From IMG/VR virus record IMGVR_UViG_3300037010_002844, positions 64,001-128,000 of that record: a DNA stretch of 64,000 nt; one strand, given 5' to 3'. Shown in pieces: positions 9,740-24,137 of this stretch (position 1 is its first letter; every line of letters begins with the position of its first letter). The position numbers were made by a program, and so were the translations under genes. This DNA comes from a virus. The notes under the pieces were generated by a model, which saw only the letters and a list, made by a program, of their open reading frames with translations, had not been told where the DNA came from and did not search any database.

Positions 9740-10067
9740 CTGCGATCCTTTCTTCCTCGAGGCACCTGTTGTCGCGCTCCGTCCTCTCCATCGTCTCTTC
9801 CCACTGTTGTTCAGCGGCTTCCCAAGCCTCGGCCCACTGTCGGAGTGCGTCCGCGTTGGGCACGCCCTCGTCATTCATAGCTTCAGGTCCTCCAAAGACG
9901 CAGAGATATGACTGTTGTGTGCCGTGGCCCCACAGTTGCACGGAGCGTAGCCCTCGTGATCGCATTCAGCTGGGCACGAGTCCGAGTGCCCGCGGTGGTT
10001 GCCAGCGAGACCTTGGCACGGACTATCTTCTCGATCAACTGTTCGTAGGTGTACATGGGTTTTATGT

Positions 10068-11198
10068 TTACGTGATTTCCCTCAACTTCCAGACCGTCGT
10101 CGACGCGCCAAAGTCGTCCCTCTTGACCTCGGCACAACACAGGATGAAGGGGTCAGGAAGCTCCTTGCCGCCCCAGACAGAAATCTTCGTGGCCTTGCCA
10201 GTGGGTCCAACCGCAAAGATTTGCACATATTCCTTGCCATTGCGGGTCTTCTTCTTGATGCCCGTCACCGGCTTGCCACCCTTCTTTGCAGCAACAGGGG
10301 CCGTGACAAACCAGACGACCGCCGTGTCACCGTGCTCCAGGTCGTCAATGCTATTGACGCCCTTCTTCTCCAAGGCAGCCAAGATTTCGATGTCAATCAT
10401 GGCGGTGACGTCCAAAGCACCGAAGACGTCGACCATATTTTGAGCACGTTCAGAAGACGACCAGTCCTCGATGTCAGCGTAGTCCCTGACCAACTGGTAG
10501 AAGTTCTTAAGGCCCTCGTGCGGGTCAGACTTCGGGTGTCGCTTGATCAACGCCCCGTGATCGATGTCGACCTCTTCGGTGACCTCGACGCCCTTGCGCT
10601 TCTTGGTCACGGTCTCCACGTGAGAACCGAAGAGGACCTCGTGCATGTGATGATAGTTGTTGAAGACCTTGCCTTCGCCCACGATGTCCATACTGCCGAA
10701 GGCACCGATCTTGACCAGGGCCTCCATCGCCTTCTTGTTGAACTTGCTGTGTTTCCACTCGAAGTTGTCATCCCACAGCAACTCCTCGATAGTGTTGTAG
10801 GGACGGTTGGCCATGATCTCTTCGACCGCCGAGTCGCCGACACCCTTGCAGGACGTCATCGACGGCATCAACTTCTTGCCGGGCAGCGCGGTCCACCCGA
10901 GCCCCGCCAGGTTGATGTCGATCGGGACGATCTGATAGCCCAAGGCCTTTACCTCGCTGAACGCCTTAGCACGTTGAGCAGGAGTGTGCGACATGCTTTC
11001 GAGATAGGCACACAGCCATTCCTCCTCGTGATATGTCATCAGCCAGGCGCACCAGAAGCTGTCAATGGCGTATGCCACTGCATGGCTGTTAGACGTCAGT
11101 ATCCCGTTAGCGAGATAGAACTGGTGATCCGGGTGATCGACTTCGAGGTCATAGGTCTGGTGTCGACCCACGGGTGTGATAGACTTGATGTTACTCAT
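10068..11198 (-). CDS. dnaE: DnaE (Pol III alpha) piece H: split-intein C-half (IntC, 11088..11198) plus C-terminal extein
   Basis: Starts MSNIKSITPVGRHQTYDLEVDHPDHQFYLANGILTSN (Hint blocks F/G) then SHAVAYAIDSFWCAWLMTYHEEEW. This matches the DnaE motif [28 protein letters not shown], continuing into the C-terminal OB region. Confidence 0.85.
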   Translation of the reverse strand: MSNIKSITPVGRHQTYDLEVDHPDHQFYLANGILTSNSHAVAYAIDSFWCAWLMTYHEEEWLCAYLESMSHTPAQRAKAFSEVKALGYQIVPIDINLAGLGWTALPGKKLMPSMTSCKGVGDSAVEEIMANRPYNTIEELLWDDNFEWKHSKFNKKAMEALVKIGAFGSMDIVGEGKVFNNYHHMHEVLFGSHVETVTKKRKGVEVTEEVDIDHGALIKRHPKSDPHEGLKNFYQLVRDYADIEDWSSSERAQNMVDVFGALDVTAMIDIEILAALEKKGVNSIDDLEHGDTAVVWFVTAPVAAKKGGKPVTGIKKKTRNGKEYVQIFAVGPTGKATKISVWGGKELPDPFILCCAEVKRDDFGASTTVWKLREIT

Positions 11199-11419
11199 GT
11201 GAGCAGGTCCTTCAACAGGTCTTCGATCGCTCCTGCGTTCGGTTCATCAAGCATTGCTTTAGCATACTCTTCTTCAATGTACTCGTCAGTCGGCTGGAGT
11301 TCAACCTTCGTTTCGCTTTTGCGTCGGTAACGTGCCGCGGCCCGTAACAGTTCGATCGGACTCAGACCCATGCGTTGGGCAATGTCATTCAGTGCGATTT
11401 CAAACGGCGGTCTTTTCAT
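11195..11419 (-). CDS. small hypothetical protein (74 aa) between HE4 and the IntC of piece H
   Basis: ORF MKRPPFEIALNDIAQRMGLSPIELLRAAARYRRK...; possibly a helix-turn-helix fragment. Confidence 0.35.
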   Translation of the reverse strand: MKRPPFEIALNDIAQRMGLSPIELLRAAARYRRKSETKVELQPTDEYIEEEYAKAMLDEPNAGAIEDLLKDLLT

Positions 11420-12449
11420 ACGCTTTTCCTATCCGATGAACGCCAGGTCGAGGATCTTTCAGGATCTCAAAAAGCTTTTTCAAGCAATCAGGTTCGAAGC
11501 GACCGCCATCCTTGTATGAGAACTGATCGTAAGAAATTCGAATGAGTGTCCAATCATGTTTAGTGATGTAATCATCAAGCATTGCATCCATGCACTTCAC
11601 TCGTTCAAAATTATCCTCGCCTTTAATACGTGCATTAAAATGGATGATTCCATCAAATTCAACATAAATGTGTCTTGATCGATCGGCAATGTCAACTTGC
11701 TTTCTTTTAGATTTGTTTGGAAAAGCAACTGACTTGACGACCTGATTATGAACAAAATCATAACCTTCAACGTTTTTCAACAAATCAAACAACGCTAATT
11801 CCGGAATGCTATGCCAAATAGCATGTGCAGCTTTTGTGCACTTTTCGTAGAACTCATCGGGGTTCAACTCACGCCAACGGGCCAGGCGCTCAGCACGTGC
11901 CTTGAGTATCTCAGGCCGGGTTGACGTTAGTCTTGCAACGTCTGATGAACGTTTACGGGCTTCAGGTCGTCGATTAAGTTCTCCCATTAGTTCAGAGCGA
12001 CGTTTCCTCTCGCCCGGATTGCTCGTGATGGCCTCACTGACCGCACGGCCCATCTTTTCCTTGTAGGCAGTCAAATCATCACCGCGTGCCTTCGCTCGTT
12101 TGAGCCAGGCGAAATTCTGCCCACGATGCTTGAAACGCGCTGTCGAGACTTTCGATGTGATTGCGGCAGTCGGGTACGCTTTCAGGTATTCTTCTTTGCT
12201 CATACCATGCGTCCCCGACAAGTGCTTTGCCAGTGCCTTACCCGTGAAGCCACAGACTTGGCATGTGACACTCTCACTGTCACCGAGTATGAATCCTTGG
12301 CACCTAGCTTGGTGTTTTTCGTAGGCCTTCAGGTAGACGAAGAGCCTGCTACATCGGTCACAACGATGCTGAGGCCCCGTTCGGCAATCATCCACAGGGG
12401 CAACATCTCGTTTGTCTCCTTCGTCCTGAACTTGTGATCCCACGTGCAC
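11400..12449 (-). CDS. free-standing homing endonuclease HE4, Vsr-like (EDxHD-type) nuclease core
   Basis: C-terminal core RSRHIYVEFDGIIHFN...WTLIRISYDQ (the Vsr-like 'vEfDG..H' motif). The N-terminal Cys/His-rich region has CDRCSRLF and CQVCGF. The annotated start overlaps the IntN of piece G in another frame, so the real start is probably internal. Confidence 0.75.
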   Translation of the reverse strand: MHVGSQVQDEGDKRDVAPVDDCRTGPQHRCDRCSRLFVYLKAYEKHQARCQGFILGDSESVTCQVCGFTGKALAKHLSGTHGMSKEEYLKAYPTAAITSKVSTARFKHRGQNFAWLKRAKARGDDLTAYKEKMGRAVSEAITSNPGERKRRSELMGELNRRPEARKRSSDVARLTSTRPEILKARAERLARWRELNPDEFYEKCTKAAHAIWHSIPELALFDLLKNVEGYDFVHNQVVKSVAFPNKSKRKQVDIADRSRHIYVEFDGIIHFNARIKGEDNFERVKCMDAMLDDYITKHDWTLIRISYDQFSYKDGGRFEPDCLKKLFEILKDPRPGVHRIGKAYEKTAV

Positions 12450-13030
12450 TTTACCTTCTCTCCGGTCACCAACTCCACTTCTACCAAGTCTAGCTCACCG
12501 TGGTCGTGTTTTGCAACAACAGGGACGAGGATGTTTTTACCTGAATTCTCATCACGAGACATGACCAGGTCGCCGGGTTCGATGTGTTGAAGCTGCTTTG
12601 TCTCTTTGAACGTGCCGTCTGAAAAAAAGGTATTTACTGGTTCCGAAAAGTACAAACTTTTATTGAAGCCGTAGCCCGCGAAGTACAGAATCTTGTCGTA
12701 GAGGTTGTTGGCCACCTTCTCGGTATAACCGTTGGCGATGCAACCCTTGACGAACCCGTCACGGGTCTCTTGGGCTGCCTTCTTTGCCGCCTCACCGCCC
12801 GAGATGCTGCGCTTCATGATTGCGCGACGGACCTCGTCACACTTGTCCTTCGGGAAGCCGGCAGCCTTCTCGGCGAGTTCCATCACCTGTTCCTGAAAAA
12901 TTATGCAGTTATGCACGAGAAGGCCATTTGCGAAGAAGTTGTTGTTCTTCTTGACCTGGATGTCGTACACAGGCTGTGCAGGAACACGCTTGATCGCACG
13001 GATCTTGACGGGAACTACGTCAGGCATCAC
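12329..13030 (-). CDS. dnaE: DnaE piece G: IntC (12908..13030) + 83-aa extein (12659..12907) + IntN (12332..12658)
   Basis: IntC ...PVYDIQVKKNNNFFANGLLVHN, then CIIFQEQVMELAEKAAGF...VRRAIMKR...YFAGYGFNK (DnaE: IILYQEQVMQIAQ...LRRAMGKKK...KFAGYGFNK), then IntN SLYFSEPVNTF...TWDHKFRT (blocks A/B). Confidence 0.85.
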   Translation of the reverse strand: MMPDVVPVKIRAIKRVPAQPVYDIQVKKNNNFFANGLLVHNCIIFQEQVMELAEKAAGFPKDKCDEVRRAIMKRSISGGEAAKKAAQETRDGFVKGCIANGYTEKVANNLYDKILYFAGYGFNKSLYFSEPVNTFFSDGTFKETKQLQHIEPGDLVMSRDENSGKNILVPVVAKHDHGELDLVEVELVTGEKVKCTWDHKFRTKETNEMLPLWMIAERGLSIVVTDVAGSSST

Positions 13031-13344
13031 TTACGCTCCGTTTCACGATGAGTCTGACAAACAATGTGTAATGACATTGAGCGCGACAAAGCATCACTGC
13101 CTAGAACGACTCGGCAAGGGTTGAGATTTTCCCCCACATGACGCATCCATTCTTGCAAAGCGTTGATCAATCGTTGGGCTTCGTTGAAACCCTCATGCGA
13201 GGGTGGAAACTGACAGCAACCTACCAAATCTCTAGTCCCAGGATCATATGCAATGATTCGCAAATTCCCATGAACGTTCATCTCTAGCGTTAGAGATCCA
13301 TAAACATCGTCATCGATCTCGCTAGTGTAAAGATCTGCGCTCAT
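13027..13344 (-). CDS. small hypothetical ORF (105 aa) in the F|G inter-fragment spacer
   Basis: Track ORF; no motif. Confidence 0.3.
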   Translation of the reverse strand: MSADLYTSEIDDDVYGSLTLEMNVHGNLRIIAYDPGTRDLVGCCQFPPSHEGFNEAQRLINALQEWMRHVGENLNPCRVVLGSDALSRSMSLHIVCQTHRETERK

Positions 13345-13345
13345 A

Positions 13346-13591
13346 TCATTTTTCTTTCATGTTCAATGATGATGCGCAGAGTTGGCACACTGGTCCATCA
13401 ACACTCAAAACACGTTGACCATGGTATTCGAGCTCCATATCATTTCCGACCTCTTCATAAGCTCGAAATGTGTCGAACCAGTCGGCATACGTGAGATCAT
13501 CACGCTTTCCAAATGCCGTATGTGACTTCATCGTGTTGATAAAGTTCTTGAACGACGTAAGCAACTCCTCTTCAAAATCATCAATCTTCAT
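13346..13591 (-). CDS. small hypothetical ORF (81 aa) in the F|G inter-fragment spacer
   Basis: Track ORF; no motif. Confidence 0.3.
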   Translation of the reverse strand: MKIDDFEEELLTSFKNFINTMKSHTAFGKRDDLTYADWFDTFRAYEEVGNDMELEYHGQRVLSVDGPVCQLCASSLNMKEK

Positions 13592-13662
13592 GTCTAAATT
13601 GTCCTCAATTTGAGGTGATAGTTCAAGGCATCAGACTCCCAGACGCGGTACACCGTGAAGCC

Positions 13663-13830
13663 TCAAGTTCTTGTGGCAAGCGTCCATAATTGATCAAGCC
13701 TAAATTGCTTCTTCATCGCAGGTGTTAGTTCATGCTTCGCTGGGTTACTGTGCCAATAGTCGCCGTCGTACTCGATGATGAGGTTGAGTGATGGCACGAC
13801 GAAGTAGCCTGGTTTCAGTACTTCATTCCC
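13663..13830 (-). pseudogene. truncated Vsr-like homing-endonuclease remnant (nuclease-core fragment only, no start codon)
   Basis: Third-frame translation NEVLKPGYFVVPSLNLIIEYDGDYWHSNPAKHELTPAMKKQFRLDQLWTLATRT* contains the 'IEYDGxYWHS' Vsr-like motif. It overlaps the 3' end of piece F and has no upstream Met. Confidence 0.5.
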
Positions 13831-14414
13831 AAAATCTCGTCTTCAGACGTCAGTTCACCTGCTTGCACCCAACCACGAGGCGTCATGACAAGGTGATCTT
13901 CAGTCAAAGACAAAGTTTCTCCACCCTCCAGCTCAACCTCGATGATGTCACGTACGCCGTTTGAGGCGACAGCGACAACTTCGTCCATCTCGACGGTCTT
14001 CGTCATTTCATTGTATGACGGAAGCTTAGTTCCCACCATTCCTTGTTCAACGATTTGTCTAATGGGAACCTCACCTTGCTCAGTAAGGATATGTGTGTCA
14101 CCCGTCAAACACGAGTATGTCTTCTTCAGGATGTCGTTGACGCGGTGATCGCCCCACTCCAACTCCTTGCCGTCATTCTTCGCCTCCAAGTACAGTCGAT
14201 CGACTTTGGCGGCCAAGGGACCCGGGCGATAGATGCTGGTCAGCGTCGCGATGTCGATGATGCTCTTGGGCTTGCCTTTGACAAAGAGTCGCTGAGCGCC
14301 CTGGCCCGTGCAATTGTGAACAACGACGTCGTTAGCGACGAAATTATGATGATTTCGCACCTCGATGTCGTAGACGTGGCGCTTACCCACGCTGCGTGAT
14401 GACACAAGCTTCAA
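13815..14414 (-). CDS. dnaE: DnaE piece F: IntC (14313..14414) + 67-aa extein (14112..14312) + IntN (13818..14111)
   Basis: IntC MKLVSSRSVGKRHVYDIEVRNHHNFVANDVVVHN; extein CTGQGAQRLF...IATLTSIYRPGPLAA...ILKKTYS (DnaE 'ALFRPGP' and '..TYG' motifs); IntN CLTGDTHILTEQG...SLTEDHLVMT. Confidence 0.85.
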   Translation of the reverse strand: MKLVSSRSVGKRHVYDIEVRNHHNFVANDVVVHNCTGQGAQRLFVKGKPKSIIDIATLTSIYRPGPLAAKVDRLYLEAKNDGKELEWGDHRVNDILKKTYSCLTGDTHILTEQGEVPIRQIVEQGMVGTKLPSYNEMTKTVEMDEVVAVASNGVRDIIEVELEGGETLSLTEDHLVMTPRGWVQAGELTSEDEILGMKY

Positions 14415-15171
14415 GCGTCGTCTCCTTCTTTTCTAGCAACTGTAGGTCATATCCACTGACAAGTGCACACTTGAGCGTCGGATGCAACGTTACGAATGCG
14501 TCAAACTTCTCCCTAGCATCATCACGCCACCAGCCCTTGACTTCCACGTACACCCGCTTAAAGAGCTCCAACGTCGGTCATTGACGATGGAAGATCATGT
14601 ACGCCTCTCTTGTGAGCTGGATCCTGATCTCCTCCTCGCTGAAGCCCTCGTCCATGCAATGACGCCAGTTGTCATACAGGTCGACGACGCCATTCTTTCC
14701 GTTCCCGTTGCCCGCTGAGTGCAGAAAGTACAAAGGGGCGCTACGATGAGCGGAGCGCGTCCGTACAATCACATGTTGCGGAGTCGTGGGCCTGTTGCGT
14801 CTCTGTAAGGCGACATGGCCACGGTCGCGGCGAAACCTGCGACCAAAACGCCCGCCTCACGTCAATCCACGAGCTTCGTAACCACTGCTAGACCCAATCA
14901 ACTCGTCGTCTTCGGTTAGGTGCTGTGCCTCAACCCACCCGCGATTCTTCGTCAAGATGGGATGATCAGCGGTGCAGACAAGCTTCTTGCCGTCGTCGAA
15001 CACGAGCTCGATGCACTCCTTGGGTCCTTGGTCGTAAACGACGTCGACGACTGATGTGGTGAACTGCTGCTTGACTTCATCGAAGACCGTCACCTCGTCA
15101 CCGACATGGACGTCCTTGATCAACTTGTACGAGTCATCGCCCATCAGCACTGCCGTGTCCTGGTCGACGCA
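14313..15171 (-). mobile_element. split-intein site 5 (E|F): IntN 14860..15171, decayed mini-nuclease gene 14383..14772, IntC 14313..14414
   Basis: As above; the intervening nuclease gene carries an in-frame stop. Confidence 0.7.
14383..14772 (-). pseudogene. mini PD-(D/E)XK nuclease gene (paralog of 23817..24137 and of the HE1 C-terminus) interrupted by one in-frame TGA at 14578..14580
   Basis: Track ORFs 14578..14772 and 14383..14571 are in the same frame, separated by a single TGA. The joined product ...YMIFHRQ*PTLELFKRVYVEVKGWWRDDAREKF aligns with the paralog ...HQIFVHDESVYYEIKGRWSDKACY, which has no stop at that position. Confidence 0.5.
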
Positions 15172-15333
15172 CTGGAAGATGCCTGCCCACTTGCCTTTCT
15201 CGTAGACCTCGTAAGGTTTGGGATCGGTGAAATCAATGACGGCCGGGTGCATGTGCTGCTCGAACCAGGTCTTGATGTCATTGAATGATACCGCATTTGT
15301 ATGTGCGTCAACGTTAGCAACGACTTTTGCCAT
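14857..15333 (-). CDS. dnaE: DnaE piece E: 54-aa extein (15172..15333) + IntN (14860..15171)
   Basis: Extein ...VIDFTDPKPYEVYEKGKWAGIFQ (DnaE 'IPLDD...TAVFQ'); IntN CVDQDTAVLMGDD...CTADHPILTKNRGWVEAQHLTEDDELIG. The first 13 aa, MAKVVANVDAHTN, resemble a vestigial block G. Confidence 0.8.
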   Translation of the reverse strand: MAKVVANVDAHTNAVSFNDIKTWFEQHMHPAVIDFTDPKPYEVYEKGKWAGIFQCVDQDTAVLMGDDSYKLIKDVHVGDEVTVFDEVKQQFTTSVVDVVYDQGPKECIELVFDDGKKLVCTADHPILTKNRGWVEAQHLTEDDELIGSSSGYEARGLT

Positions 15334-17116
15334 GTCTTTGTAAAGGTACTTTCACAGGTCCATAACGTACACCGCGTTGGAGCAACCAAAGATCTTAAAA
15401 AGCCTGTGTTCCATCGCCATCTCTTCTTGTGATGCGATCCCCGGAATCGCCCTGACAGCAAATCTATCGATACGATTTTGTCCGTCCGTCCACCAAAACC
15501 TAGGCTGCGTCATGTGATCAAATCTAAAACCAGATAGTTCATACGCCCGGCCAGTGCCACCCAACCTCATGTCACGGTATGTGATCATTTTTTGGTAACC
15601 ATGCTCACGTGACCAATCCCTGGCAGCGTTGATCAACCGCGACATGCCTCCAACGACGATGGTATCGCGGGCCGTTGAAACCCGCGCCAATTCAATTGTC
15701 TTAGATCCCCACTTAGTCTGCTGGTGCGGTTTTCGCAATGTCAATGCACAAATAATGTTTCCAGCAATGTCCTCTAGCCAGAACGAATGCGACGAAGGAG
15801 TGTTTCCATCGAGGTGATTGTTCGCCATGAACTGAGCGGTGATGGCTGGACGACCGCTGCGAAGATGTAGCTTTCGTGCCATCACGCGAGTAGCAAGACC
15901 AAGCTTTACCCTGATCATGCTTTTGATGATGTTTTTCTTTACATCATGGTGCCATTCATCGTCGAAGATATGTAGCAACGACACACCACGCTCAAGAGCG
16001 CGAGTCGACTTGTCTTGGTGATACGATGGTGGAGTACCGGTCGCCTCACTGTGCCAATAGACACCGTTGCACTCGATGGCAATCCTTCCGTTACCTGACA
16101 CGATGTCCAGCTCATAAGGCGCGATTGACTGTCTGTCGTTGGCGATGGCGTTCGAATCGAGCTTGACGAAGAAATCGAACACCTCACGATGCCAGCGAGA
16201 GAAATTAGCCGGGTAGCACGTTGAACACACCTTTCCCTTGTAAAGGACGTTAAAGGGAACAATATCAGGTACGTTACAACTGACGCATGTCACATGCACC
16301 GGTGTTGAGTATCCAGCAAACTCAAATTTTTCGATGTTCCACCTCGACCGCAGTGCATCAACTCGCCGTTCGACCTCTTCGAGAGACAACCGAAAAGGAG
16401 AGTTAGTGCCGTTCTCGATAAGGCGTTTTCTAGTCTCGATGATCGAACGTTTGATATCTTCAGAATTAGCGTTCCGAGACCAATGATTCAAGCGAACGCC
16501 TTCGCCGATCCGTTCTGATCGCCGTTTGATCCTATCGTCAGTTTCTGACGTCTGACCGTGCTGCGTCCAGTGTTTTTCTACTTGCCATTTTTCAGTCAAT
16601 GCTCGAGAGATGTTATGCGCAGCTCTTGTGATAGATTCATTATTTTCTTTAGTTTGTCCTGTTCTCCAGTGCCCGTGTTTTTTGATGAAATCACGACAAC
16701 CTTGTGCGGCCCTTCGAACCGATTCAGACGTTGTTTCTGACAGCCCCTTGTTCCATGCAGGCAATGATTTTGATTTCCGGCTAAGCGCACCTCTTACTTG
16801 AGAGTTCTTCTTGCTACAAACTCCACAGAGACGTTCATATCCCGTTTGAAAGGTCATGAACTTGACCGGCCCTGAACACTGAACGCACGGTCCAGGGTGC
16901 TCTCGAAAAAGAAGGTACGCAGCCTCCGCATTGAGCCCGTGCTTTTTAAGGAGATGTGCGCGGAGCGAATTTAGGCTAGCTTTTCGCAATGGATCATTGC
17001 ACTGTGGGCACCTCGAAGGACACGATGTCATCGCCGGGCCCGAGCTCCCTCGCAAGGATGGTGCCCCTGTTGCTGGTGACGATTCGTTGGTCGCCGTAGA
17101 CGCCTCGTGTCGTTCC
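15295..17116 (-). mobile_element. split site 4 (D|E): HE3 insertion with no intact intein; Hint-N-like tail on D and a vestigial block-G-like head (MAKVVANVDAHTN) on E
   Basis: The D tail GTTRGVYGDQRIVTSNRGTILARELGPGDDIVSF lacks Cys1 and block B; the E head ends ..HTN|A, with no nucleophile. Confidence 0.45.
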
Positions 17117-17151
17117 ATCGTCGAGTTGGATCTCAAACCACCCTCTTTCAT
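15352..17151 (-). CDS. free-standing homing endonuclease HE3: Zn-finger + NUMOD3 repeats + Vsr-like nuclease + conserved C-terminal domain
   Basis: C2H2-like CPQCNDPLRKASLNSLRAHLLKKH. NUMOD3-like repeats (...SETDDRIKRRSERIGE...). Nuclease core GRIAIECNGVYWHSE. The C-terminal ~200 aa (ARKLHL...HLDGN...VVGGMSRL...RFWWTD...DRF) is shared with HE2. The annotated N-terminus overlaps piece D, so the real start is likely internal (~17118). Confidence 0.8.
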   Translation of the reverse strand: MKEGGLRSNSTMERHEASTATNESSPATGAPSLRGSSGPAMTSCPSRCPQCNDPLRKASLNSLRAHLLKKHGLNAEAAYLLFREHPGPCVQCSGPVKFMTFQTGYERLCGVCSKKNSQVRGALSRKSKSLPAWNKGLSETTSESVRRAAQGCRDFIKKHGHWRTGQTKENNESITRAAHNISRALTEKWQVEKHWTQHGQTSETDDRIKRRSERIGEGVRLNHWSRNANSEDIKRSIIETRKRLIENGTNSPFRLSLEEVERRVDALRSRWNIEKFEFAGYSTPVHVTCVSCNVPDIVPFNVLYKGKVCSTCYPANFSRWHREVFDFFVKLDSNAIANDRQSIAPYELDIVSGNGRIAIECNGVYWHSEATGTPPSYHQDKSTRALERGVSLLHIFDDEWHHDVKKNIIKSMIRVKLGLATRVMARKLHLRSGRPAITAQFMANNHLDGNTPSSHSFWLEDIAGNIICALTLRKPHQQTKWGSKTIELARVSTARDTIVVGGMSRLINAARDWSREHGYQKMITYRDMRLGGTGRAYELSGFRFDHMTQPRFWWTDGQNRIDRFAVRAIPGIASQEEMAMEHRLFKIFGCSNAVYVMDL

Positions 17152-17851
17152 GTCGTTCCTTTTTGATGATGAGCTCGATGGCGCGCTCGATGAGCCGCAT
17201 CGTTTCTAGACCTAGGAGGTCGTACTTGATGAACTCTCCGATCTTCTCAAGGTGTTTATAATTTACGCCCTCGACCCAAGGTGACTGTGGCTCGCGGACG
17301 CCGGCCTTGCCTTTGGACGTCACCAAAGGCATCTTGTTGGGCAAATCGTCTGCAATCAGCACACCACCCGCGTGACGACCGAGACTACGATTCTGCTTGA
17401 AGAGGATCTTGATCGACTCGGCGACGACCGGGTACTTCTCAATGAAGCCGCGAAACGACGGGCTGACCGGCTGCTTACACTCTGGGCTACAGCCCTGGCA
17501 GATGGACTTCGACTCCGGGCCCTTAGGAGCCCTGCAGTGGAAGGCCATGGCCTCATCGTAGGTCAAGACGAACAGATTCTTGTCGTCGCCTTCCTTCATC
17601 GTCGCCTTACGGACCTCGTCCTCGACGGTCCGCGTGGCAGCGTTGGTCTCCTCGAATGGGATGCCGTAGAACTTGCCGATATCCTTTACAAGCGTTTTTA
17701 GTTTGAAACAGTTATAATTGCTGATGGGAACGACGTTTTCCCACCCAAAAAAGTTTCGAAGTTCATCAAGAACCTCATCTCGCCTGGCAAGATCGGTGTT
17801 GTGAACAACGACGCTCTTGTTGGACGCCAAAAATGAATGAACGACCATCAC
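16994..17851 (-). CDS. dnaE: DnaE piece D: 18-aa IntC-like head (17798..17851) + core extein; the ~40-aa C-terminal tail is non-DnaE-like (Hint-N-like, no Cys1)
   Basis: MMVVHSFLASNKSVVVHN|TDLARRDEVLDELRNFFGWENVVPISNYNCFKLKTLVKDIGKFYGIPFEE (DnaE: RRDEVIDYV..YG.D.VAQI.TFGTM.AKAAIRDVGRVLG.PY) ... GRHAGGVLIADD...YDLLGLETMRLIERAIELI (DnaE: KHAGGVVI...FDFLGLRTLTII). Confidence 0.85.
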   Translation of the reverse strand: MMVVHSFLASNKSVVVHNTDLARRDEVLDELRNFFGWENVVPISNYNCFKLKTLVKDIGKFYGIPFEETNAATRTVEDEVRKATMKEGDDKNLFVLTYDEAMAFHCRAPKGPESKSICQGCSPECKQPVSPSFRGFIEKYPVVAESIKILFKQNRSLGRHAGGVLIADDLPNKMPLVTSKGKAGVREPQSPWVEGVNYKHLEKIGEFIKYDLLGLETMRLIERAIELIIKKERHERGWFEIQLDDGTTRGVYGDQRIVTSNRGTILARELGPGDDIVSFEVPTVQ

Positions 17852-20436
17852 ATGAATCCTAACTCAACTACAGTTGAATTTACATGCGCTCGTTGTGGTC
17901 GAAACCACGAAACGCTACGAGCATTGAAGATCCACGAGGCACGACACAGGCGAGAAGACGCCAGGCCTCCCAAACAGGTGTCAACTTACGCGTGTCCGTG
18001 GTGTGAGGCGTCATATGACAGCGGGCGTAAGTTGACATTGCACTGCACAAAAACGCACCAAAAATCACCCGTCGTTGTGTATGAAACAAGGTACCCAGGG
18101 TGCAGGAAGACGTGCATCGATTGTTGCGACTGGGTCAGGTTCATCGATCAAGAAAAAGGATACCCCGAACGGTGTCCACGTTGTAGCCGAAAACACGCAT
18201 ACGCGTCCAAGGGCACCTCGTCATGGAACAAAGGCCTGACGAAAGACAATGACGAACGCATGTCAGCCAGTGCTGCAAACATGCGAGCTCACTACAAGGA
18301 ACACGGTCACCACAACTCCGACAAGACAAAGGAAAACAACGAAAGCCTTAAACAAAAGGCGGCAAAAATCAGCGACAGCCTGCGGAGGTATTATGCAACG
18401 CACAGCGGCTGGTCACTTGGCCTGACAAAGGATACGTCTAGCATCATTGAATCTCGCAGTAAGAAGATCAGCGCTTCGTTGAAAGGACGATTCTTTAGCG
18501 ACGTAACGCTTGAAAAAATGCGCAAGGCAAAGTTGCTGACGCACGACGAGGTACAAAAACGCCTCAAAGAAAAGCAGCTTAAACTCATTGACGAATATGT
18601 CGATACTGTCACCAAAGCGCGCATCGAATGCACGATATGTTCAACAATATTTGAGCGTTGCGTTGGCGCAGTGTTCAACAACGAGGCCAAGTGTCCCACC
18701 TGCTTTCCGCCTTGGTCAGACAAAACGAGCAGGTGGCAACAGGACGTCTACGCATTTATCCAGACGCTGGCACCTGACGCAGTCCTTAGCGATCGTAAGA
18801 CGCTCGGCGGAATGGAGCTCGACATACTCATTCCATCGCGCATGTTTGCCATCGAGTGCAATGGCCTATACTGGCACAGCGAGGCCGCCAATAGATTTGA
18901 GCACGATCACGCGGAAAAGAAGAGATTGCTGTCCCTCAAAGCCGGCGTATCGCTTTTCACGTTATTTGAGGATGAGTGGCGCGACAAACGACCGATAATC
19001 GAAAGCATGTTGCGCCATCGCCTTGGGTTTTCTACCAAAGTCGATGCGCGTAAGTTGAAAGCAGAACGCTGCGAGCCCGAAGAAGTTCGAGAATTCATCA
19101 ATCAGTGCCACCTCGACGGTCACGTGAGGGCCCAATTTGCCGTGCGATTGGTAACCTCATCGGGCGAAATCGTAGGCGCCTGCAGCCTTAGGTGGGCACG
19201 AAATGGGGCAGACAGAACGACGATTGAGATCGCTCGCCTGTGCTTCAAGCTTGGCACACATGTACGAGGCGGGGTGTCAAAATTGCTATCAAAGGCAAAA
19301 GCTATAGCAAGAGAAAACAATGCAGCGAGGTTGATGTCTTACTCAGACAATCGCTTGGGAGGAAACGGTTATGCCACCTCAGGCATGAAGTTCAACGGTA
19401 CCACAGTCGCTCGCTTCTGGTGGACTGACTTCATGCATCGTTACGACAGGTTCAAGTACCGAGCCAACAAGAAGCAAGGTCTAACAGAAAAACAGGTAGC
19501 GGAGGCTGCCGGCGTTTATCGCATCTATGGCTGTAGCAACTCTCGCTACGTCTTAGACGTCACAGCGTGACGCTAATGTCATCGTCAAACTTTGAGGACG
19601 CATTTTCTTTGAGCCAGAAGATGGCGTCAATTGTGCGCTCGTCGGCGTCGGCGTCATCGCACGACGTAGCCCCATAGTATGGGGGCCAAATCGTGCTCAA
19701 ACCCTTTAACGCGCAGTTTGACCTGACAATCTTGAAATTCAGGATTTTCTGCAGCTCTCGTCTGAGCTATTCTTTCCAGGCCAGACACTATCACATCATC
19801 TGCTCGGCAGAATCGCCGTTGTCTGTAAGCTGCACCGCATCAACGTTGCTCGGACACGGTCCCAACTCCAGCTCAAATTTCATAGTTGCGCTCGCTGTGG
19901 TCTGTTCTTCTCTTAGACGCGCACCAATCGCTGCAAAAATTGTCTCCTTCGCCACACGCAAGGAACGTGCCAGGAATGACGCCCATGCAATAACCGACGT
20001 CATGTGATGGATCACCTCCACTTAGAATGGACGTATTGAACGGTACCACGTGGAATCTGTGATCGTCTTCAACAGTCAGGTCGACGTATCTAGCGTTGGA
20101 AGAGCCCCAACCACCGTGCTCGATCGATACGACCTCAACGCTGCCGCATGATGCCATCAATTCATCTCCGACCTTAAGGTCGCGGCAGTACACGATGACG
20201 CCGTCAGCTCTGACAAATTTGTGACCGGGCACCACCAAAATGTGGCCCAACGTACCATCATTGGCCCTAACTCTGACCCAGACAGCGTCCTCGAATGGCC
20301 GCAAATTTCTAGCATAGGTCGCAGTTACTGCGTGTGGCATTCCATCGCCTCCCAGGACGACGTCGCCGACAATGATGTCAACAGCTCGCTTATGAGTGCC
20401 GTCTGTCATGACGACAAGATGGTCCTCGTGGACGCA
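17798..20436 (-). mobile_element. split-intein site 3 (C|D): long IntN with blocks A/B/F (19876..20436), HE2 on the opposite strand (17837..19570), 18-aa IntC carrying block G only (17798..17851)
   Basis: The IntN tail ...YVDLTVEDDHRFHV plus the IntC head SFLASNKSVVVHN|T together reconstruct a contiguous F-G block (compare HNFVANDVVVHN of piece F). Confidence 0.55.
17837..19570 (+). CDS. free-standing homing endonuclease HE2 (opposite strand to dnaE): Zn-finger + NUMOD3 repeats + Vsr-like nuclease + conserved C-terminal domain
   Basis: CARCGRNHETLRALKIHEARH; NUMOD3 repeats (WNKGLTKDNDERMSASAANMRAHYKEHGHHNSDKTKENNESLKQKAAKISDSL...); nuclease core RMFAIECNGLYWHSE; C-terminal domain homologous to that of HE3 (ARKLKA...HLDGH...VRGGVSKL...RFWWTD...DRF). 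Confidence 0.8.
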   Translation: MNDHHMNPNSTTVEFTCARCGRNHETLRALKIHEARHRREDARPPKQVSTYACPWCEASYDSGRKLTLHCTKTHQKSPVVVYETRYPGCRKTCIDCCDWVRFIDQEKGYPERCPRCSRKHAYASKGTSSWNKGLTKDNDERMSASAANMRAHYKEHGHHNSDKTKENNESLKQKAAKISDSLRRYYATHSGWSLGLTKDTSSIIESRSKKISASLKGRFFSDVTLEKMRKAKLLTHDEVQKRLKEKQLKLIDEYVDTVTKARIECTICSTIFERCVGAVFNNEAKCPTCFPPWSDKTSRWQQDVYAFIQTLAPDAVLSDRKTLGGMELDILIPSRMFAIECNGLYWHSEAANRFEHDHAEKKRLLSLKAGVSLFTLFEDEWRDKRPIIESMLRHRLGFSTKVDARKLKAERCEPEEVREFINQCHLDGHVRAQFAVRLVTSSGEIVGACSLRWARNGADRTTIEIARLCFKLGTHVRGGVSKLLSKAKAIARENNAARLMSYSDNRLGGNGYATSGMKFNGTTVARFWWTDFMHRYDRFKYRANKKQGLTEKQVAEAAGVYRIYGCSNSRYVLDVTA

Positions 20437-20610
20437 GTCGATATCAGGAGCACCAGAGTTATGTGTCAGCACCCAATCGCTATCGTTGTTGGACACCCAA
20501 AACGTATGCTGGCCTTCGACCTCGATGTCGATGAGTTCTACACTTTCATCGACAACCTCGATAGCTTCAATTTTGGCCGTGCTTGCTGATGAGATGTTGG
20601 GTTCCTGCAT
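19873..20610 (-). CDS. dnaE: DnaE piece C: IntC (20458..20610) + 7-aa extein SGAPDID (20437..20457) + long IntN carrying blocks A, B and F (19876..20436)
   Basis: IntC ...ELIDIEVEGQHTFWVSNNDSDWVLTHN; extein SGAPDID (DnaE 'SMPDIDIDF'); then CVHEDHLVVMTDG...GDVVL (block A), TLGHILVVPGHKF (B), ARYVDLTVEDDHRFHV (F-like), then a ~55-aa tail. Confidence 0.75.
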   Translation of the reverse strand: MQEPNISSASTAKIEAIEVVDESVELIDIEVEGQHTFWVSNNDSDWVLTHNSGAPDIDCVHEDHLVVMTDGTHKRAVDIIVGDVVLGGDGMPHAVTATYARNLRPFEDAVWVRVRANDGTLGHILVVPGHKFVRADGVIVYCRDLKVGDELMASCGSVEVVSIEHGGWGSSNARYVDLTVEDDHRFHVVPFNTSILSGGDPSHDVGYCMGVIPGTFLACGEGDNFCSDWCASKRRTDHSERNYEI

Positions 20611-21788
20611 AGTCCCTGTGCTCTAGATTGGCAATCGTATGGTACAAACCTTGTCGACGAAGTTCACCATAGAAGTCATTCATGTACACGACGTCGATGC
20701 GCTGACCAGACGCCACAACGACTTCCCGTGAACGTGCGTTTGAGTTAAGCAACTTTGAGAAACGCGATTTGCCTTCTCGCACACCTTTCAACTCCACGTA
20801 TCGGTCCTCATCACTGAACCAAAAGTCTGGAGTGTAACACTTCTCTTTGCCATCGATGACAACATGGAAAGACCTATGTTCATAGAATGGCATCTTACCG
20901 AGGTGCAAGCAATATCTGTAGTAGTCGGCTTCGAACGAGCTCTTGAAGTACGGGCTGTTTAGGATGTCGGAACGAAAACACGAGCGTCCGTTCACATGTG
21001 AAGCAACCATATCACGTGACTGTGCCTCGCGGGTGCACCGTTTGGAACAGAACCGCGGCACGTAGCTCTTCTTGGTGACGATCGGTTCGCTACAAACTTC
21101 GCATACCAACGTGTGGCGGTCAAACCTCGATGCAGCGAAACATTTGGGTGAACAGAACCTGCGATTGACGTTCTTCGTTGAGAAAGTGCCTAGACACTGT
21201 ACACATGTCAGTGTACGGAGCTCATTCTTTGTCAGCGCTTTCGCAGTGTACTTGTGCCTGCACGCATTCGAACATAGTTTTCTGTTGTTGTGACACTTTG
21301 GAACGTAGAACTCATCGCCGTACTCGACGCACGTCTTCACAAGCCTCGAGGGCATGGGAGCGTGTGACATCAGCTTCCTGTGAGCGACGGCACACTCATC
21401 AGTGCAGTACGGGCGATGGAGCCTACTACCAGAACCCTTGCAGTTGGGCTCATAGTTGAACTGAAACATAATACCACAGTGTTTACACTGTTTCTCAATG
21501 ATGCTCATAGTGGTACGTGTACAGCTCGTCACTCGTCGACAGCTCAGATGTATACTTCTTCACAGGTTGTCCATCAGGACCCACTGTCAACCACACATGA
21601 TTTTCAGAACACGTGAACGTAGTACCATTCACCTTCACGCGGTACGTCTTCTCATGTTTTGTGGTCATGGTGAACGTAACTTTACGGTGTGAGCCATCCT
21701 GTGAGACAACGCTGTCACCGACTTTCACGTCTCGAAGCGCGGACGACGAACCATCTGACATCAATACCTTTGTGTCTGGCGACAGACA
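20458..21788 (-). mobile_element. split-intein site 2 (B|C): IntN 21498..21788, HE1 20567..21532, IntC 20458..20610
   Basis: As above; the HE gene overlaps both intein halves in other frames. Confidence 0.75.
20567..21532 (-). CDS. free-standing homing endonuclease HE1: tandem zinc-ribbon array + C-terminal mini PD-(D/E)XK nuclease
   Basis: At least six CxxC pairs ([40 protein letters not shown]). C-terminus [37 protein letters not shown] is a D...E.K nuclease motif shared with ORFs 23817..24137 and 14383..14772. Both gene ends overlap the intein halves of pieces B and C. Confidence 0.65.
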
Positions 21789-21992
21789 CCTGTGAACGCT
21801 AAGGAATCGCGCGAAAGGCAGGTCCCAGAACAACGGGTCCAAGTCGGTGATGTATAGGACGTAGGCGACCAGAGAGCCACCGCCCGAATTGTGGACTGCA
21901 ATACCTTCCACGTTGTAAGTGTGGCTGTTTTCCACACACAGGTCTACGACCTCACCCTTATACGGTACGACAGTCTTACTTCTGAGCTTCAT
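21495..21992 (-). CDS. dnaE: DnaE piece B: IntC (21888..21992) + 33-aa extein (21789..21887) + IntN (21498..21788)
   Basis: Int[36 protein letters not shown]; extein [33 protein letters not shown] (DnaE: GSGAGSLVAYALGITDIDPL.YDLLFERFLNPER); Int[14 protein letters not shown]...CSENHVWLT. Confidence 0.85.
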
Positions 21993-22352
21993 GATATGCG
22001 TTCGCTCTCTTCATGTAAGCCTTGAGATCCCTGTCTAATAGACATTTGACGAGGATCAGGTAAACTTAGTTGAGTTTCATTCAACCTCGATTAGGTCATC
22101 ATCTTCAGTCAAGTGTTGTGCTTCAATCCACCCACGATTCTTCGTCAGAAACTTATGCTCCTTGGTGCACCTGATCTTCTTACCGTCATCAAACTCGAGT
22201 TCTAGCAGCTCCTCATCAACCTGATACCTGAAGATCTGAGTCACCATCTGATCAACACCATATGCATCCTTGATAACGTCGCCCACCTTGATGGTGCCAA
22301 TGGGAGCATGCATGCCGTCAGCCATTAGAACCCGCGTCTCAGGAACGAAACA
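21888..22352 (-). mobile_element. split-intein site 1 (A|B): IntN 22080..22352, 84-nt spacer with no HE, IntC 21888..21992
   Basis: Hint blocks A/B in IntN, F/G (..VHN|S) in IntC; the halves sit in separate ORFs with their own stop and start codons. Confidence 0.75.
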
Positions 22353-23762
22353 ACCGCGGGCTGGGCCGGTAAGGCACACATTGCGTGCCAGCTCCATGAT
22401 CTTCTGGTAGGAAATGAAGTAGTCAGAGTTTTTCATCACCTTAATGACGCCGAGTTCCTCCTTGAGGCGCGCGATATACTCTGGCTTGTCTTGAAGACCA
22501 CGCTTCACCATGCCCACCTTACAAAGCGAGATGAGGTGATTGAACGAGGTCGTGCCTTCGGGCACCAACAACCTCGTCGGAAACTTGGGCGAACGATCGG
22601 GTGGAATCTCCCCGATGACACTGTGTGCGATATCGTGAGTCCGCTCAATGGCGTCACAGACGACTTCATCGTCATACCAGTCGGTGCCTTCCTTGGAGCG
22701 CTGGTACTCATCCCACATCTGTTGGGCGTTCTTCGGATAGAGCTCACACTTCAGCTCATCCTTCGACTTCGGAATCGCGTCAGGATTGATCTCCTGGTAG
22801 TTCATCCAACCCAGGCGCTTGTAGAGCTCACGGTCCTTCCAACGATCGGGATTATAGTAGTGAGCATCGCCGGTGACGATCAGCTGCTTGTTGAGCCCAT
22901 TGCGACGAGCGAACTCCAGGATCGCGCGGTTGACGAGGTTCTGCGCCGGTAGGCGATTGAACTGCAGCTCGAGGAAGTAGTTTCCTTCGCCGACTGCATC
23001 GACCATGTGCTGGTAGGTATTGCCCACCGCGACAACGCATTTCTCGAGCAGCACAGGGTCACTGAGCAACCGTGCGTCGAGCTCGTCAAACTTGTACTGT
23101 TGGATTTCCTGGAATATGGAGTACGCCGGCATGCCGCCGATACAAGCGCTGCTGACGATGATGTCGCCGCCTTTGGCTGCCTCTTTGAGGACAGCATGGT
23201 CAATGCGCGGGAACTTGTAGAAGCCCTTCAAGAATCCCTTCGAACATGCTGCGAAGATCGCCAACAGGCCCTTCTGGTTCTTGGGCAGAATGACTAGGTG
23301 ATGCCGTCGGTTGACGGGATTGAAGTGTTTGGTCGATTTGGACTCTTCCTCGTTTTCGACAGTCAAGGCGTTGGACATCTCAATGTCCTCAGTCTCATCA
23401 TTTTCATCGATGGTGGCGATGATCTTGGTCTGCAGCTTTTCCTGCTCCTTAGCAAGCTTGGCCGCAACCCTCCTGTCTCCCTTCGCCTGCTCTGCGAGTT
23501 CGACGTCCTTCTTCCATTGCTCCAGGTCGGGATGGTAGTACGCCTCGACGCCGGGAATGTACTTGAACGACTTTCCCTTATTGGCCTTGGCCCACTCCTC
23601 GACCCACAGTTGAGCGTGGGCATAGGAGTTCATGTTCCCGTGCTCGGTGATGGCATGGCCATCGAGCCCGTTCTCCATGCACCACTTGAAGTGTTCATCG
23701 GGATAGCCCAAACCATCGAAGGGCGCATTACGAGAAGCCCGTGTGGTTGTGCAAACCGACAA
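22077..23762 (-). CDS. dnaE: DnaE piece A: PHP-domain N-terminal extein (22353..23762) + IntN (22080..22352)
   Basis: PHP motif ...GLDGHAITEHGNMNSYAHAQLW...KYIPGVEAYY; extein ends ...VCLTGPARG (DnaE 'GPGRGSAAGS'); IntN CFVPETRVLMADG...CTKEHKFLTKNRGWIEAQHLTEDDDLIEVE. Confidence 0.9.
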   Translation of the reverse strand: MSVCTTTRASRNAPFDGLGYPDEHFKWCMENGLDGHAITEHGNMNSYAHAQLWVEEWAKANKGKSFKYIPGVEAYYHPDLEQWKKDVELAEQAKGDRRVAAKLAKEQEKLQTKIIATIDENDETEDIEMSNALTVENEEESKSTKHFNPVNRRHHLVILPKNQKGLLAIFAACSKGFLKGFYKFPRIDHAVLKEAAKGGDIIVSSACIGGMPAYSIFQEIQQYKFDELDARLLSDPVLLEKCVVAVGNTYQHMVDAVGEGNYFLELQFNRLPAQNLVNRAILEFARRNGLNKQLIVTGDAHYYNPDRWKDRELYKRLGWMNYQEINPDAIPKSKDELKCELYPKNAQQMWDEYQRSKEGTDWYDDEVVCDAIERTHDIAHSVIGEIPPDRSPKFPTRLLVPEGTTSFNHLISLCKVGMVKRGLQDKPEYIARLKEELGVIKVMKNSDYFISYQKIMELARNVCLTGPARGCFVPETRVLMADGMHAPIGTIKVGDVIKDAYGVDQMVTQIFRYQVDEELLELEFDDGKKIRCTKEHKFLTKNRGWIEAQHLTEDDDLIEVE

Positions 23763-23816
23763 ATCGTCGGGGCACTCGCACCGAGCTTCCCTTGGCGTCC
23801 TCCTTTCCTTGCTGCG

Positions 23817-24137
23817 TCATTTACCTTCCCACCTTACCTTGTCACGGTACTGTAGACCCAATTGACGGTACTGGACACCGTCAATGACCACGATAGTCAC
23901 TTCAGGAAACTTGATTCGCATCAGTGCAAGCTGATAGCACGCCTTGTCAGACCACCTTCCCTTAATTTCGTAGTACACGCTTTCATCGTGAACGAAAATC
24001 TGGTGTGTACCAAGCCGGCCATGTCGGCGATCTGCGGCAACGTGGCCATACCAATGGGTATCAGCACGCGGAGCCACTTGGGCAGCTTGTTCCAGGTGGG
24101 CTTCAGCTGGGTGACGAGCTATGAAACAACGATGCAA
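23817..24137 (-). CDS. mini PD-(D/E)XK nuclease-like protein (106 aa), intact paralog of 14383..14772 and of the HE1 C-terminus
   Basis: ...HQIFVHDESVYYEIKGRWSDKACYQLALM; D..(Y)YE(I)KG motif. Confidence 0.5.
   Translation of the reverse strand: MHRCFIARHPAEAHLEQAAQVAPRADTHWYGHVAADRRHGRLGTHQIFVHDESVYYEIKGRWSDKACYQLALMRIKFPEVTIVVIDGVQYRQLGLQYRDKVRWEGK

Follow-up and report, generated by a model that had tools for sequence, protein, structure and literature searches.

The DNA polymerase III α subunit gene (dnaE) on a 64,000-nt stretch of viral DNA (IMG/VR record IMGVR_UViG_3300037010_002844, positions 64,001 to 128,000; hereafter the window) is fractured into eight pieces, A to H, and the breaks A/B and E/F carry split inteins whose N-terminal halves (IntN) resemble each other. 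We consider it likely that these are two separate canonical class-1 split inteins of the known phage 'fractured gene' family, the group of NrdJ-1 and IMPDH-1, and that they are independent of each other and probably orthogonal. Judged from their sequences, the two IntNs are paralogs within this widespread family, old, independently mobile and paired with clearly different C-terminal halves (IntC).

The window represents a phage replication module with PHROG matches that include ribonucleotide reductase (RNR), a DnaB-like helicase, an exonuclease, a UvsX-like recombinase and a polynucleotide kinase. Its dnaE consists of eight consecutive open reading frames (ORFs) separated by seven breaks (Table 1). 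Six of these (A/B, B/C, C/D, E/F, F/G and G/H) hold recognizable split inteins, the D/E break being without a catalytic intein, and several of the gaps between the pieces contain endonuclease-like ORFs or their remnants. Alignment of the pieces with the uninterrupted homologs of related loci, all of them IMG/VR viral contigs (L002, L004 and L006), identified each junction as an insertion into a continuous, conserved protein. At the A/B and E/F sites L006 reads LVGPGRGSGAGSLVAY and GVFQCTGKGAQQLF, respectively, without a break, dnaE of L002 and L004 is entirely uninterrupted, and the number of breaks per relative ranges from zero (L002, L004) to five (L008). A protein identical to piece E, P0001, was found on contigs of up to 309 kb. 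A megablast search of a phage collection with window positions 10000-24000 gave no match, and tblastn of piece E against the same collection returned just generic intein matches with less than 44% identity.

Both inteins exhibit the features of class-1 split inteins, i.e. Cys1, the TxxH motif, a terminal HN and a Ser or Cys at position +1, and the initial annotation had located their halves exactly, in coordinates as well as in sequence. Cys1 of IntN(A) (CFVPET) and of IntN(E) (CVDQDT) directly follows extein residues that can be aligned with uninterrupted homologs, the insertion sites being GPARG/SGGGS for A/B and GIFQ/CTGQ for E/F with G/S and Q/C as the respective junctions. The two halves of each intein are encoded by adjacent ORFs on the same strand; an endonuclease gene is absent from A/B, and a remnant of one is present in E/F. 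This remnant is identical in 47 of 64 positions to a 296-aa ORF of L008 (8175-9065), only query residues 237-296 being covered in the tblastn alignment, and an intact endonuclease ORF lies between E and F in L008 and L094. In Pfam searches piece A matched PHP (1.2e-17), DNA_pol3_alpha and Intein_splicing. The Intein_splicing match of piece F reaches 49.2 bits at a cut-off of 35.8, and the halves in A (30.3 bits) and E (25.8 bits) stay below the cut-off, as is expected of half domains. The IntN tails are acidic (net charge -6 or -7 in A, -4 or -5 in E) and the IntC heads basic (+3 in B, +4 in F). The F/G pair has the same polarity, and B/C has an acidic head.

IntN(A) and IntN(E) are identical in 44 of 91 residues (48%) as compared to 22-34% for the remaining IntN pairs of dnaE, and their local alignment score of 202 (z = 34.7, 2000 shuffles) compares with scores of 68-120 for those pairs. 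The similarity is concentrated in the C-terminal part (C-part), where 29 of 38 residues (76%) match in the stretch ELxFDDGKK...DDxLI and 18 of 21 in the core LTKNRGW[IV]EAQHLTEDD[DE]LI, the N-terminal parts (N-parts) being about 30% identical. The initial annotation had called the IntNs near-identical over the last ~40 residues; they are indeed homologous there, but this wording is somewhat overstated and applies to the protein level only. In the DNA the shared half is 65% identical, third positions match in 17 of the 30 identical codons, and the proportion of synonymous differences (pS) is 0.86, i.e. synonymous sites are saturated, which argues against a recent copy. The likeness of A and E is thus maintained by selection on the protein and is not a residue of recent copying.

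The partners differ more than the IntNs, as had been noted initially: IntC(B) and IntC(F) are identical in 13 of 34 residues (38%; 41% in identity-by-halves scoring), including the MKL start that both indeed share. They are not the closest IntC pair of the gene, with F-G (41%) and C-F (44%) being more similar, and in tblastn searches at E ≤ 1 they do not find each other. Searching the window with tblastn identified no further member of the A/E intein family outside dnaE. The similarity of the IntNs extends far past the generic Hint block B pattern T..H...GW...L..D, contrary to the restricted similarity by which the initial annotation would have been refuted. The partner-specificity problem raised there is real, with two pairs having the same acidic tail and the same MKL/basic head within one gene.

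The A/E tail is neither generic to Hint domains nor private to A and E, but is a family-wide signature. The ending TKNRGWVEAQHLTEDDEL closes split IntNs in RNR (L009), helicase (P0128), SPL-like (L010) and ThyA (P0030) genes of unrelated phages and resembles that of NrdJ-1 (PDB 8UBS). A database search with piece E returned split IntNs ending in ...CTPEHKILTKNRGWVEAQHLTEEDELVY in RNR α subunits and a thymidylate synthase, and one ending in ...GEHPFYTKNRGWVEAQHLTEDDELL in an SPL-like radical-SAM gene. A search with an IntN profile retrieved 968 representative proteins at E ≤ 1e-10 and, at the more lenient E ≤ 1e-3, 10,354. Among the hosts are DnaE, ResIII/DEAD helicases and RNRs of classes I and II. 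Of the top 150 representatives, 78 carry the IntN at the C-terminus of the protein, the mark of a split intein. Scored by halves, the C-part of A is 71% identical to that of E and 62% identical to that of the RNR intein of L009, which in turn shares 67% with E. Whichever types and genomes are paired, the 57 nt encoding the tail show 68-84% DNA identity, across loci ranging from 32% to 52% G+C (A vs E in the window, 77%; A of the window vs A of L012, 84%). This is the pattern that amino-acid constraint predicts, and it gives no sign of exchange. The same tail occurs with very different basic IntC heads across the family.

Outside the tail the two inteins have different affinities within the family. 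Using reference sequences of NrdJ-1 and IMPDH-1 from PMC7090010, we found the N-part of A-type IntNs to be closest to IMPDH-1 (36-55% identity across members, 43% in the window) as compared to 18-40% for E-type IntNs. Likewise, IntC(B) is 51% identical to the IMPDH-1 IntC (...YKGKVHDLTVNQDHSYNVRGTVVHN) and 35-41% identical to F-type IntCs, and both A/B and IMPDH-1 have a -1 Gly/+1 Ser junction and similar IntN starts (CFVPET in A, CFVPGT in IMPDH-1). IMPDH-1, from the GOS metagenome, differs from A/B in its host gene, its non-acidic tail and a ~14-aa insertion in the C-part, which is found in all IMPDH-type relatives. Since this insertion is absent from A/B, the intein represents a lineage related to the IMPDH-1 type and not a member of it; as the insertion is lineage-specific, the differing IMPDH-type tail is the derived state, and recombination is not needed to explain A. 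The E/F pair is closest to NrdJ-1 and to helicase inteins, IntC(F) being 47% identical to the NrdJ-1 IntC, and the helicase intein P0128 is 50% identical to E over its full length, as close as A is to E. In a neighbor-joining tree (200 bootstraps) A groups with IMPDH-1 and E with the helicase, RNR and NrdJ-1 inteins, a hint only as support is 11-14%.

The best match of both inteins among solved structures is NrdJ-1 (GOS metagenome; PDB 8UBS). A fusion of IntN(E) and IntC(F) gave an E-value of 9.8e-16 with query residues 52-137 being covered, i.e. the IntN C-part and nearly all of IntC, whereas for a fusion of IntN(A) and IntC(B) the match (E = 1e-9) is restricted to the C-part. Resemblance to NrdJ-1 in both halves is thus confined to E/F. 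NrdJ-1, whose IntN ends in CTPDHPVYTKNRGYVRADELTDDDELVVAI, resembles the two inteins in its ...CTPDHPVYTKNRGYVRADELTDDDEL type of tail, its basic IntC head, its canonical split site and its class-1 chemistry, but it resides in a class II RNR at the site NPC/SEI, and the full-length IntN identity is just 33%. The Npu/Ssp cyanobacterial DnaE intein resides in the same protein family, is likewise split at the canonical site and combines an acidic IntN with a basic IntC. However, it is inserted at a different site, its halves are encoded at loci far apart from each other, it is matched only weakly in the PDB sequence search (E = 1e-5 to 1e-4), and its alleles cross-react, whereas A/B and E/F have clearly different IntCs.

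Each of the two inteins has its own orthologs. A-type IntNs at the same GxGRG/C site form dozens of 50%-identity clusters and occur in at least 15 IMG/VR loci (P0031-P0035, L008, L012, L019-L036 and dozens of representatives). They are followed by an IntC with the B-type signature [MV][KR][LI]K.K...Y.G.V.D[LI].V.NS.[TS]YN...VHN/S, which is conserved in 12 further loci, and in P0099 an A-type IntN and a B-type IntC form one contiguous mini-intein of 124 aa. E-type IntNs occur at FQ/C together with F-type IntCs in P0002-P0008, L008, L021, L094 and L012/L013, the A-type being far more widespread than the E-type. We compared occupancy of the two sites in phage relatives with DnaE exteins mostly 50-85% identical to those of the window. 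Both inteins are present in the window, L008, L021 and the more distant L012/L013, only A/B in L019/L022 and L020, only E/F in L094, where the A site reads GAGRG/SGGGS, and neither in L001-L006. This pattern of presence and absence means that A/B and E/F were spread and lost independently among close relatives. The identity between A and E within a genome (48% in the window, 51% in L008, 38% in L012) is in the range of that between genomes (47-53%) or below it. Recent duplication or gene conversion between A and E can be ruled out, given the saturated synonymous sites, the uniform identity of the tail DNA and the lack of excess identity within genomes.

When the window was compared with L008, the ratio of non-synonymous to synonymous substitution rates (dN/dS) came to 0.04 in IntN(A), 0.08 in IntC(F) and 0.14 in IntC(B), and IntN(E), whose synonymous sites are saturated, had a dN of 0.25. 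These values show that both inteins are under strong purifying selection. The cognate halves are predicted to trans-splice, which is indirectly supported by the low dN/dS values and by the consideration that the pieces of an essential polymerase could not function unassembled.

How the pairs might keep apart can be rationalized by analogy with other split inteins. Assembly of naturally split inteins begins with an antiparallel charge zipper, in which the acidic C-end of IntN pairs with the basic first residues of IntC (bioRxiv 10.1101/546465). In our reading the family would keep the C-terminal third of IntN, comprising block B, the TKNRGW turn and the acidic strand EAQHLTEDDxL, nearly constant, which would explain why IntN(A) and IntN(E) look alike, and, as in gp41-1 and Npu DnaE, the end of IntN would zip against the basic first strand of IntC in a 'capture' step. 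This step is probably not selective, as family members combine one and the same tail with basic heads that differ widely. In Npu DnaE swapping the charges of the zipper did not abolish cross-activity, orthogonality thus not being set by charge alone (bioRxiv 10.1101/546465). Partner choice would instead reside in the N-terminal half of IntN and, on the IntC side, in the head and blocks F/G, since these parts are type-specific and stably different: IMPDH-1-like with +1 Ser in A/B, NrdJ-1/helicase-like with +1 Cys in E/F, and distinct over a wide range of phages. A/B and E/F are probably orthogonal. For the reference inteins themselves, the in vivo signal of NrdJ-1 and IMPDH-1 cross pairs stayed below 1% of that of the cognate pairs (PMC7090010, Suppl. 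Data 1).

Several points weigh against this interpretation. The split of A/IMPDH from E/helicase/RNR in the neighbor-joining tree has a bootstrap value below 15%. Over the full length A- and E-type IntNs are 48-53% identical, which in the sample places each type among the nearest non-allelic relatives of the other, and A and E share the stretch ELxFDDGKKxxCT upstream of block B, which the RNR intein does not have; together these two observations leave room for a specific common origin of A and E. The NrdJ-1/IMPDH-1 precedent is imperfect, as those two lack a common tail and A and E have one. Finally, we infer the orthogonality of A/B and E/F, and the roles of the segments are carried over from gp41-1 and Npu DnaE.

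A common origin could mean that a dnaE-resident split intein moved ectopically to a second site of the same gene long ago, its N-part and IntC then diverging, perhaps because orthogonality was selected for, and its capture tail remaining unchanged. Besides the close relationship and the additional shared stretch just mentioned, this would account for the presence of both inteins in one gene, their co-occurrence in four genomes and the fact that a search with A returns the E-type P0003 next after A's own orthologs. Yet neither the N-parts (30%) nor the IntCs (38-41%) of the two inteins resemble each other more than they do other inteins, the N-part of A and its IntC are nearer to IMPDH-1, and the helicase intein P0128 is as close to E as A is. 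Moreover, L094 has E/F without A/B, the A-type is by far the more widespread one, and the +1 residues differ (Ser vs Cys), so that we regard such an ancient intragenic duplication as unlikely. The suggestion of the initial annotation that one split intein was duplicated to a second dnaE site is not upheld, the tail being family-wide, the N-parts divergent, each site having its own orthologs and synonymous sites being saturated. The differing identity of the two IntN halves might also reflect shuffling of modules, an IMPDH-1-like N-part with its IntC having been joined to a NrdJ-1/E-like C-part to give a recombinant A-type IntN. However, the flanks of the lineage-specific IMPDH-type insertion still align with A (CTKxHxF...W..A..L.....LIExE), unequal rates and a single insertion suffice to produce the pattern, and no trace of exchange was found at the DNA level, which makes this origin of A very improbable.

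In place of orthogonality, non-cognate association or splicing might be tolerated or even used, e.g. if the shared tail gathers the fragments before specific splicing occurs. The nearly identical tails, the basic IntC heads with their MKL start, the combination of one tail with many different heads across the family, and a third, catalytically dead copy of the module at the D/E break would all fit this picture. Cross-splicing, on the other hand, would generate dead-end products in which A is joined to F, with B to E being skipped, or E is joined to B; at least four diverged genomes have kept both pairs side by side, with strong purifying selection acting on them, and the IntCs are clearly type-specific. 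We thus expect cross-splicing to be negligible and deem non-orthogonal pairs highly unlikely. Another reading, which we regard as unlikely, is that the tail serves as a shared promiscuous docking module with three copies in dnaE (A, E and the dead one at D/E): the pieces would at first associate loosely by zippers of acidic tails and basic heads, only cognate pairs would then collapse and splice, and the D/E copy would hold its pieces together unspliced.

The third copy is found in the tail of piece D, which is degenerate but homologous to the IntN C-part of this family. The D tails (50 aa in the window) match IntN C-parts with an hhalign probability of 97.1% (E = 5.8e-11, 45 columns) and are conserved in L005, L008 and L094. 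The D/E break is without Cys1, TxxH and HN, and piece E begins with a short peptide resembling an IntC head. In L005 the D/E break is the only one, separating proteins of 775 aa and 510 aa with no endonuclease gene, and the same break is present in L008 and L094. The D/E module may represent the leftover of an intein, now keeping the two pieces attached to each other without splicing. The eight-piece dnaE and this degenerate module are more unusual features than the likeness of A and E.

The other inteins of the gene have peculiarities of their own. The C/D intein is split at an unusual place: its IntN of 187 aa already contains a block-F-like stretch (YVDLTVEDDHRFHV), and its IntC of just 18 aa (MMVVHSFLASNKSVVVHN) repeats part of block F, a layout also seen in L008. 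The G/H intein starts with Ser (SLYFSEP...) and ends with ...ILTSN/S, thus lacking cysteine at both catalytic junction positions. IntC(F) and IntC(G), encoded at the start of their pieces, are the most similar IntC pair detected by tblastn (41%, E = 2.6e-6), and IntN(E) and IntN(F) are the second-best IntN pair (score 120). The specificity question for E/F vs F/G is at least as sharp as that for A and E, and it includes a possible self-reaction of piece F, which carries both IntC(F) and IntN(F).

Two large, paralogous endonuclease-like ORFs of 599 and 577 aa, one of them opposite to the dnaE strand, share zinc-finger-like N-terminal regions, a Vsr/restriction endonuclease-like core (...ECNG[VL]YWHSEA...) and, at the C-terminus, a conserved domain that weakly matches GNAT, Pfam matches being weak throughout. 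A short ORF (MPSLNLIIEYDGDYWHSNPAKHE...) that resembles the core motif of a Vsr-like endonuclease is probably a decayed endonuclease gene between F and G, and a Cys-rich ORF of 321 aa without Pfam match lies between B and C, overlapping the 3' end of B by 38 nt and the 5' end of C by 44 nt. Elsewhere in the window, the ORF of the RNR large subunit (1213 aa) has an insert of ~350-440 aa between two RNR-matching parts with a weak Intein_splicing match (residues 305-653, E = 4e-6); this insert, which has no TKNRGW tail, probably represents a contiguous intein from a different family. Since an ORF of 408 aa matches family A DNA polymerase only in part (Pfam DNA_pol_A positions 110-352), a PolA-like fragment may be encoded by the phage in addition to DnaE. 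Outside the window, dnaE of L006 (9536-11400) is unbroken at all seven window sites, yet it contains a split intein inside the PHP domain (SACI/HPDS... and ...LVHN/CIGG) with a Vsr-like endonuclease ORF between the halves. The metagenomic protein P0112 (433 aa) combines an E-like IntN with a GIY-YIG and NUMOD3 endonuclease in a single ORF; such a form may stand midway between contiguous inteins that contain an endonuclease and split inteins whose endonuclease is free-standing.

Table 1. Features of the fractured dnaE and of other ORFs in the window
Feature	Position	Strand	Description
dnaE, pieces A-H	10068-23762	(-)	Pol III α
Piece A	22077-23762	(-)	PHP domain and start of Pol III α NTPase domain; ends ...LTGPARG, then IntN
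IntN(A)	22080-22352	(-)	91 aa; starts CFVPETRV, Cys1, block B TKEH
IntN(A), conserved C-part	22089-22202	(-)	ELEFDDGKKIRCTKEHKFLTKNRGWIEAQHLTEDDDLI; NrdJ-1 (PDB 8UBS) match, E = 1e-9
A/B spacer	21993-22076	(-)	84 nt, no endonuclease gene; purine-rich stretch precedes ATG of B
Piece B	21495-21992	(-)	begins with IntC of A/B intein
IntC(B)	21888-21992	(-)	35 aa; ends IAVHN, +1 Ser (IAVHN/SGGGS)
Cys-rich ORF between B and C	20567-21532	(-)	321 aa
Piece C	19873-20610	(-)	dnaE ORF
IntN of C/D intein	19876-20436		in piece C
Endonuclease-like ORF	17837-19570	(+)	577 aa
Piece D	16994-17851	(-)	dnaE ORF
IntC of C/D intein	17798-17851		in piece D
D tail	16997-17155	(-)	third, degenerate IntN C-part copy; no Cys1, YGDQ in place of TxxH
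Endonuclease-like ORF	15352-17151	(-)	599 aa
Piece E	14857-15333	(-)	extein ...KGKWAGIFQ, then IntN of E/F intein
IntC-head-like peptide	15295-15333		~13 aa, start of piece E
IntN(E)	14860-15171	(-)	104 aa; starts CVDQDTAV, Cys1, block B TADH
IntN(E), conserved C-part	14896-15009	(-)	ELVFDDGKKLVCTADHPILTKNRGWVEAQHLTEDDELI; NrdJ-1 (PDB 8UBS) match
Endonuclease remnant between E and F	14386-14577	(-)	last ~60 aa of free-standing endonuclease gene of relatives
Piece F	13815-14414	(-)	begins with IntC of E/F intein; also carries IntN(F)
IntC(F)	14313-14414	(-)	34 aa; TTG start read as M, then KLVSSRSVGKRHVYDIEVRNHHNFVANDVVVHN; ends VVVHN, +1 Cys (VVVHN/CTGQG)
Short ORF between F and G	13663-13797	(-)	Vsr-like core motif
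Piece G	12329-13030	(-)	dnaE ORF
IntC(G)	12908-13030		start of piece G
G/H intein	12332-12658, 11088-11198		starts with Ser
Piece H	10068-11198	(-)	dnaE ORF
RNR large-subunit ORF	44405-48046	(-)	1213 aa
PolA-like ORF	55232-56458	(-)	408 aa

Fractured genes, including three DnaE loci with DnaE split at three different sites and one of them holding part of a second intein, have been described by Dassa et al. 2009 (PMC2677866). There, split inteins divide phage-type replication genes into adjacent ORFs on the same strand, with free-standing, partly Vsr-like endonuclease genes between the halves. The window has the adjacent same-strand ORFs as well; it differs in that a single dnaE has seven breaks and in that A/B has no endonuclease gene and E/F a remnant. 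A literature search for natural genes with several split inteins yielded nothing beyond that study, and no report of a natural gene with as many split inteins as this dnaE was found.

Engineering of split inteins needs mutually orthogonal pairs, and orthogonality is still unpredictable from sequence. The fractured dnaE constitutes a natural system in which at least six split inteins lie side by side on one protein, A and E having nearly the same capture strand and differing in the other parts. A/B and E/F thereby make it testable whether partner choice is made by the charge-zipper strand or by contacts of the N-lobe and blocks F/G. If the docking idea were true, the gene would moreover be a natural example of assembly in which pieces are first captured and then proofread, and would show how an intein remnant can be reused for dimerization.

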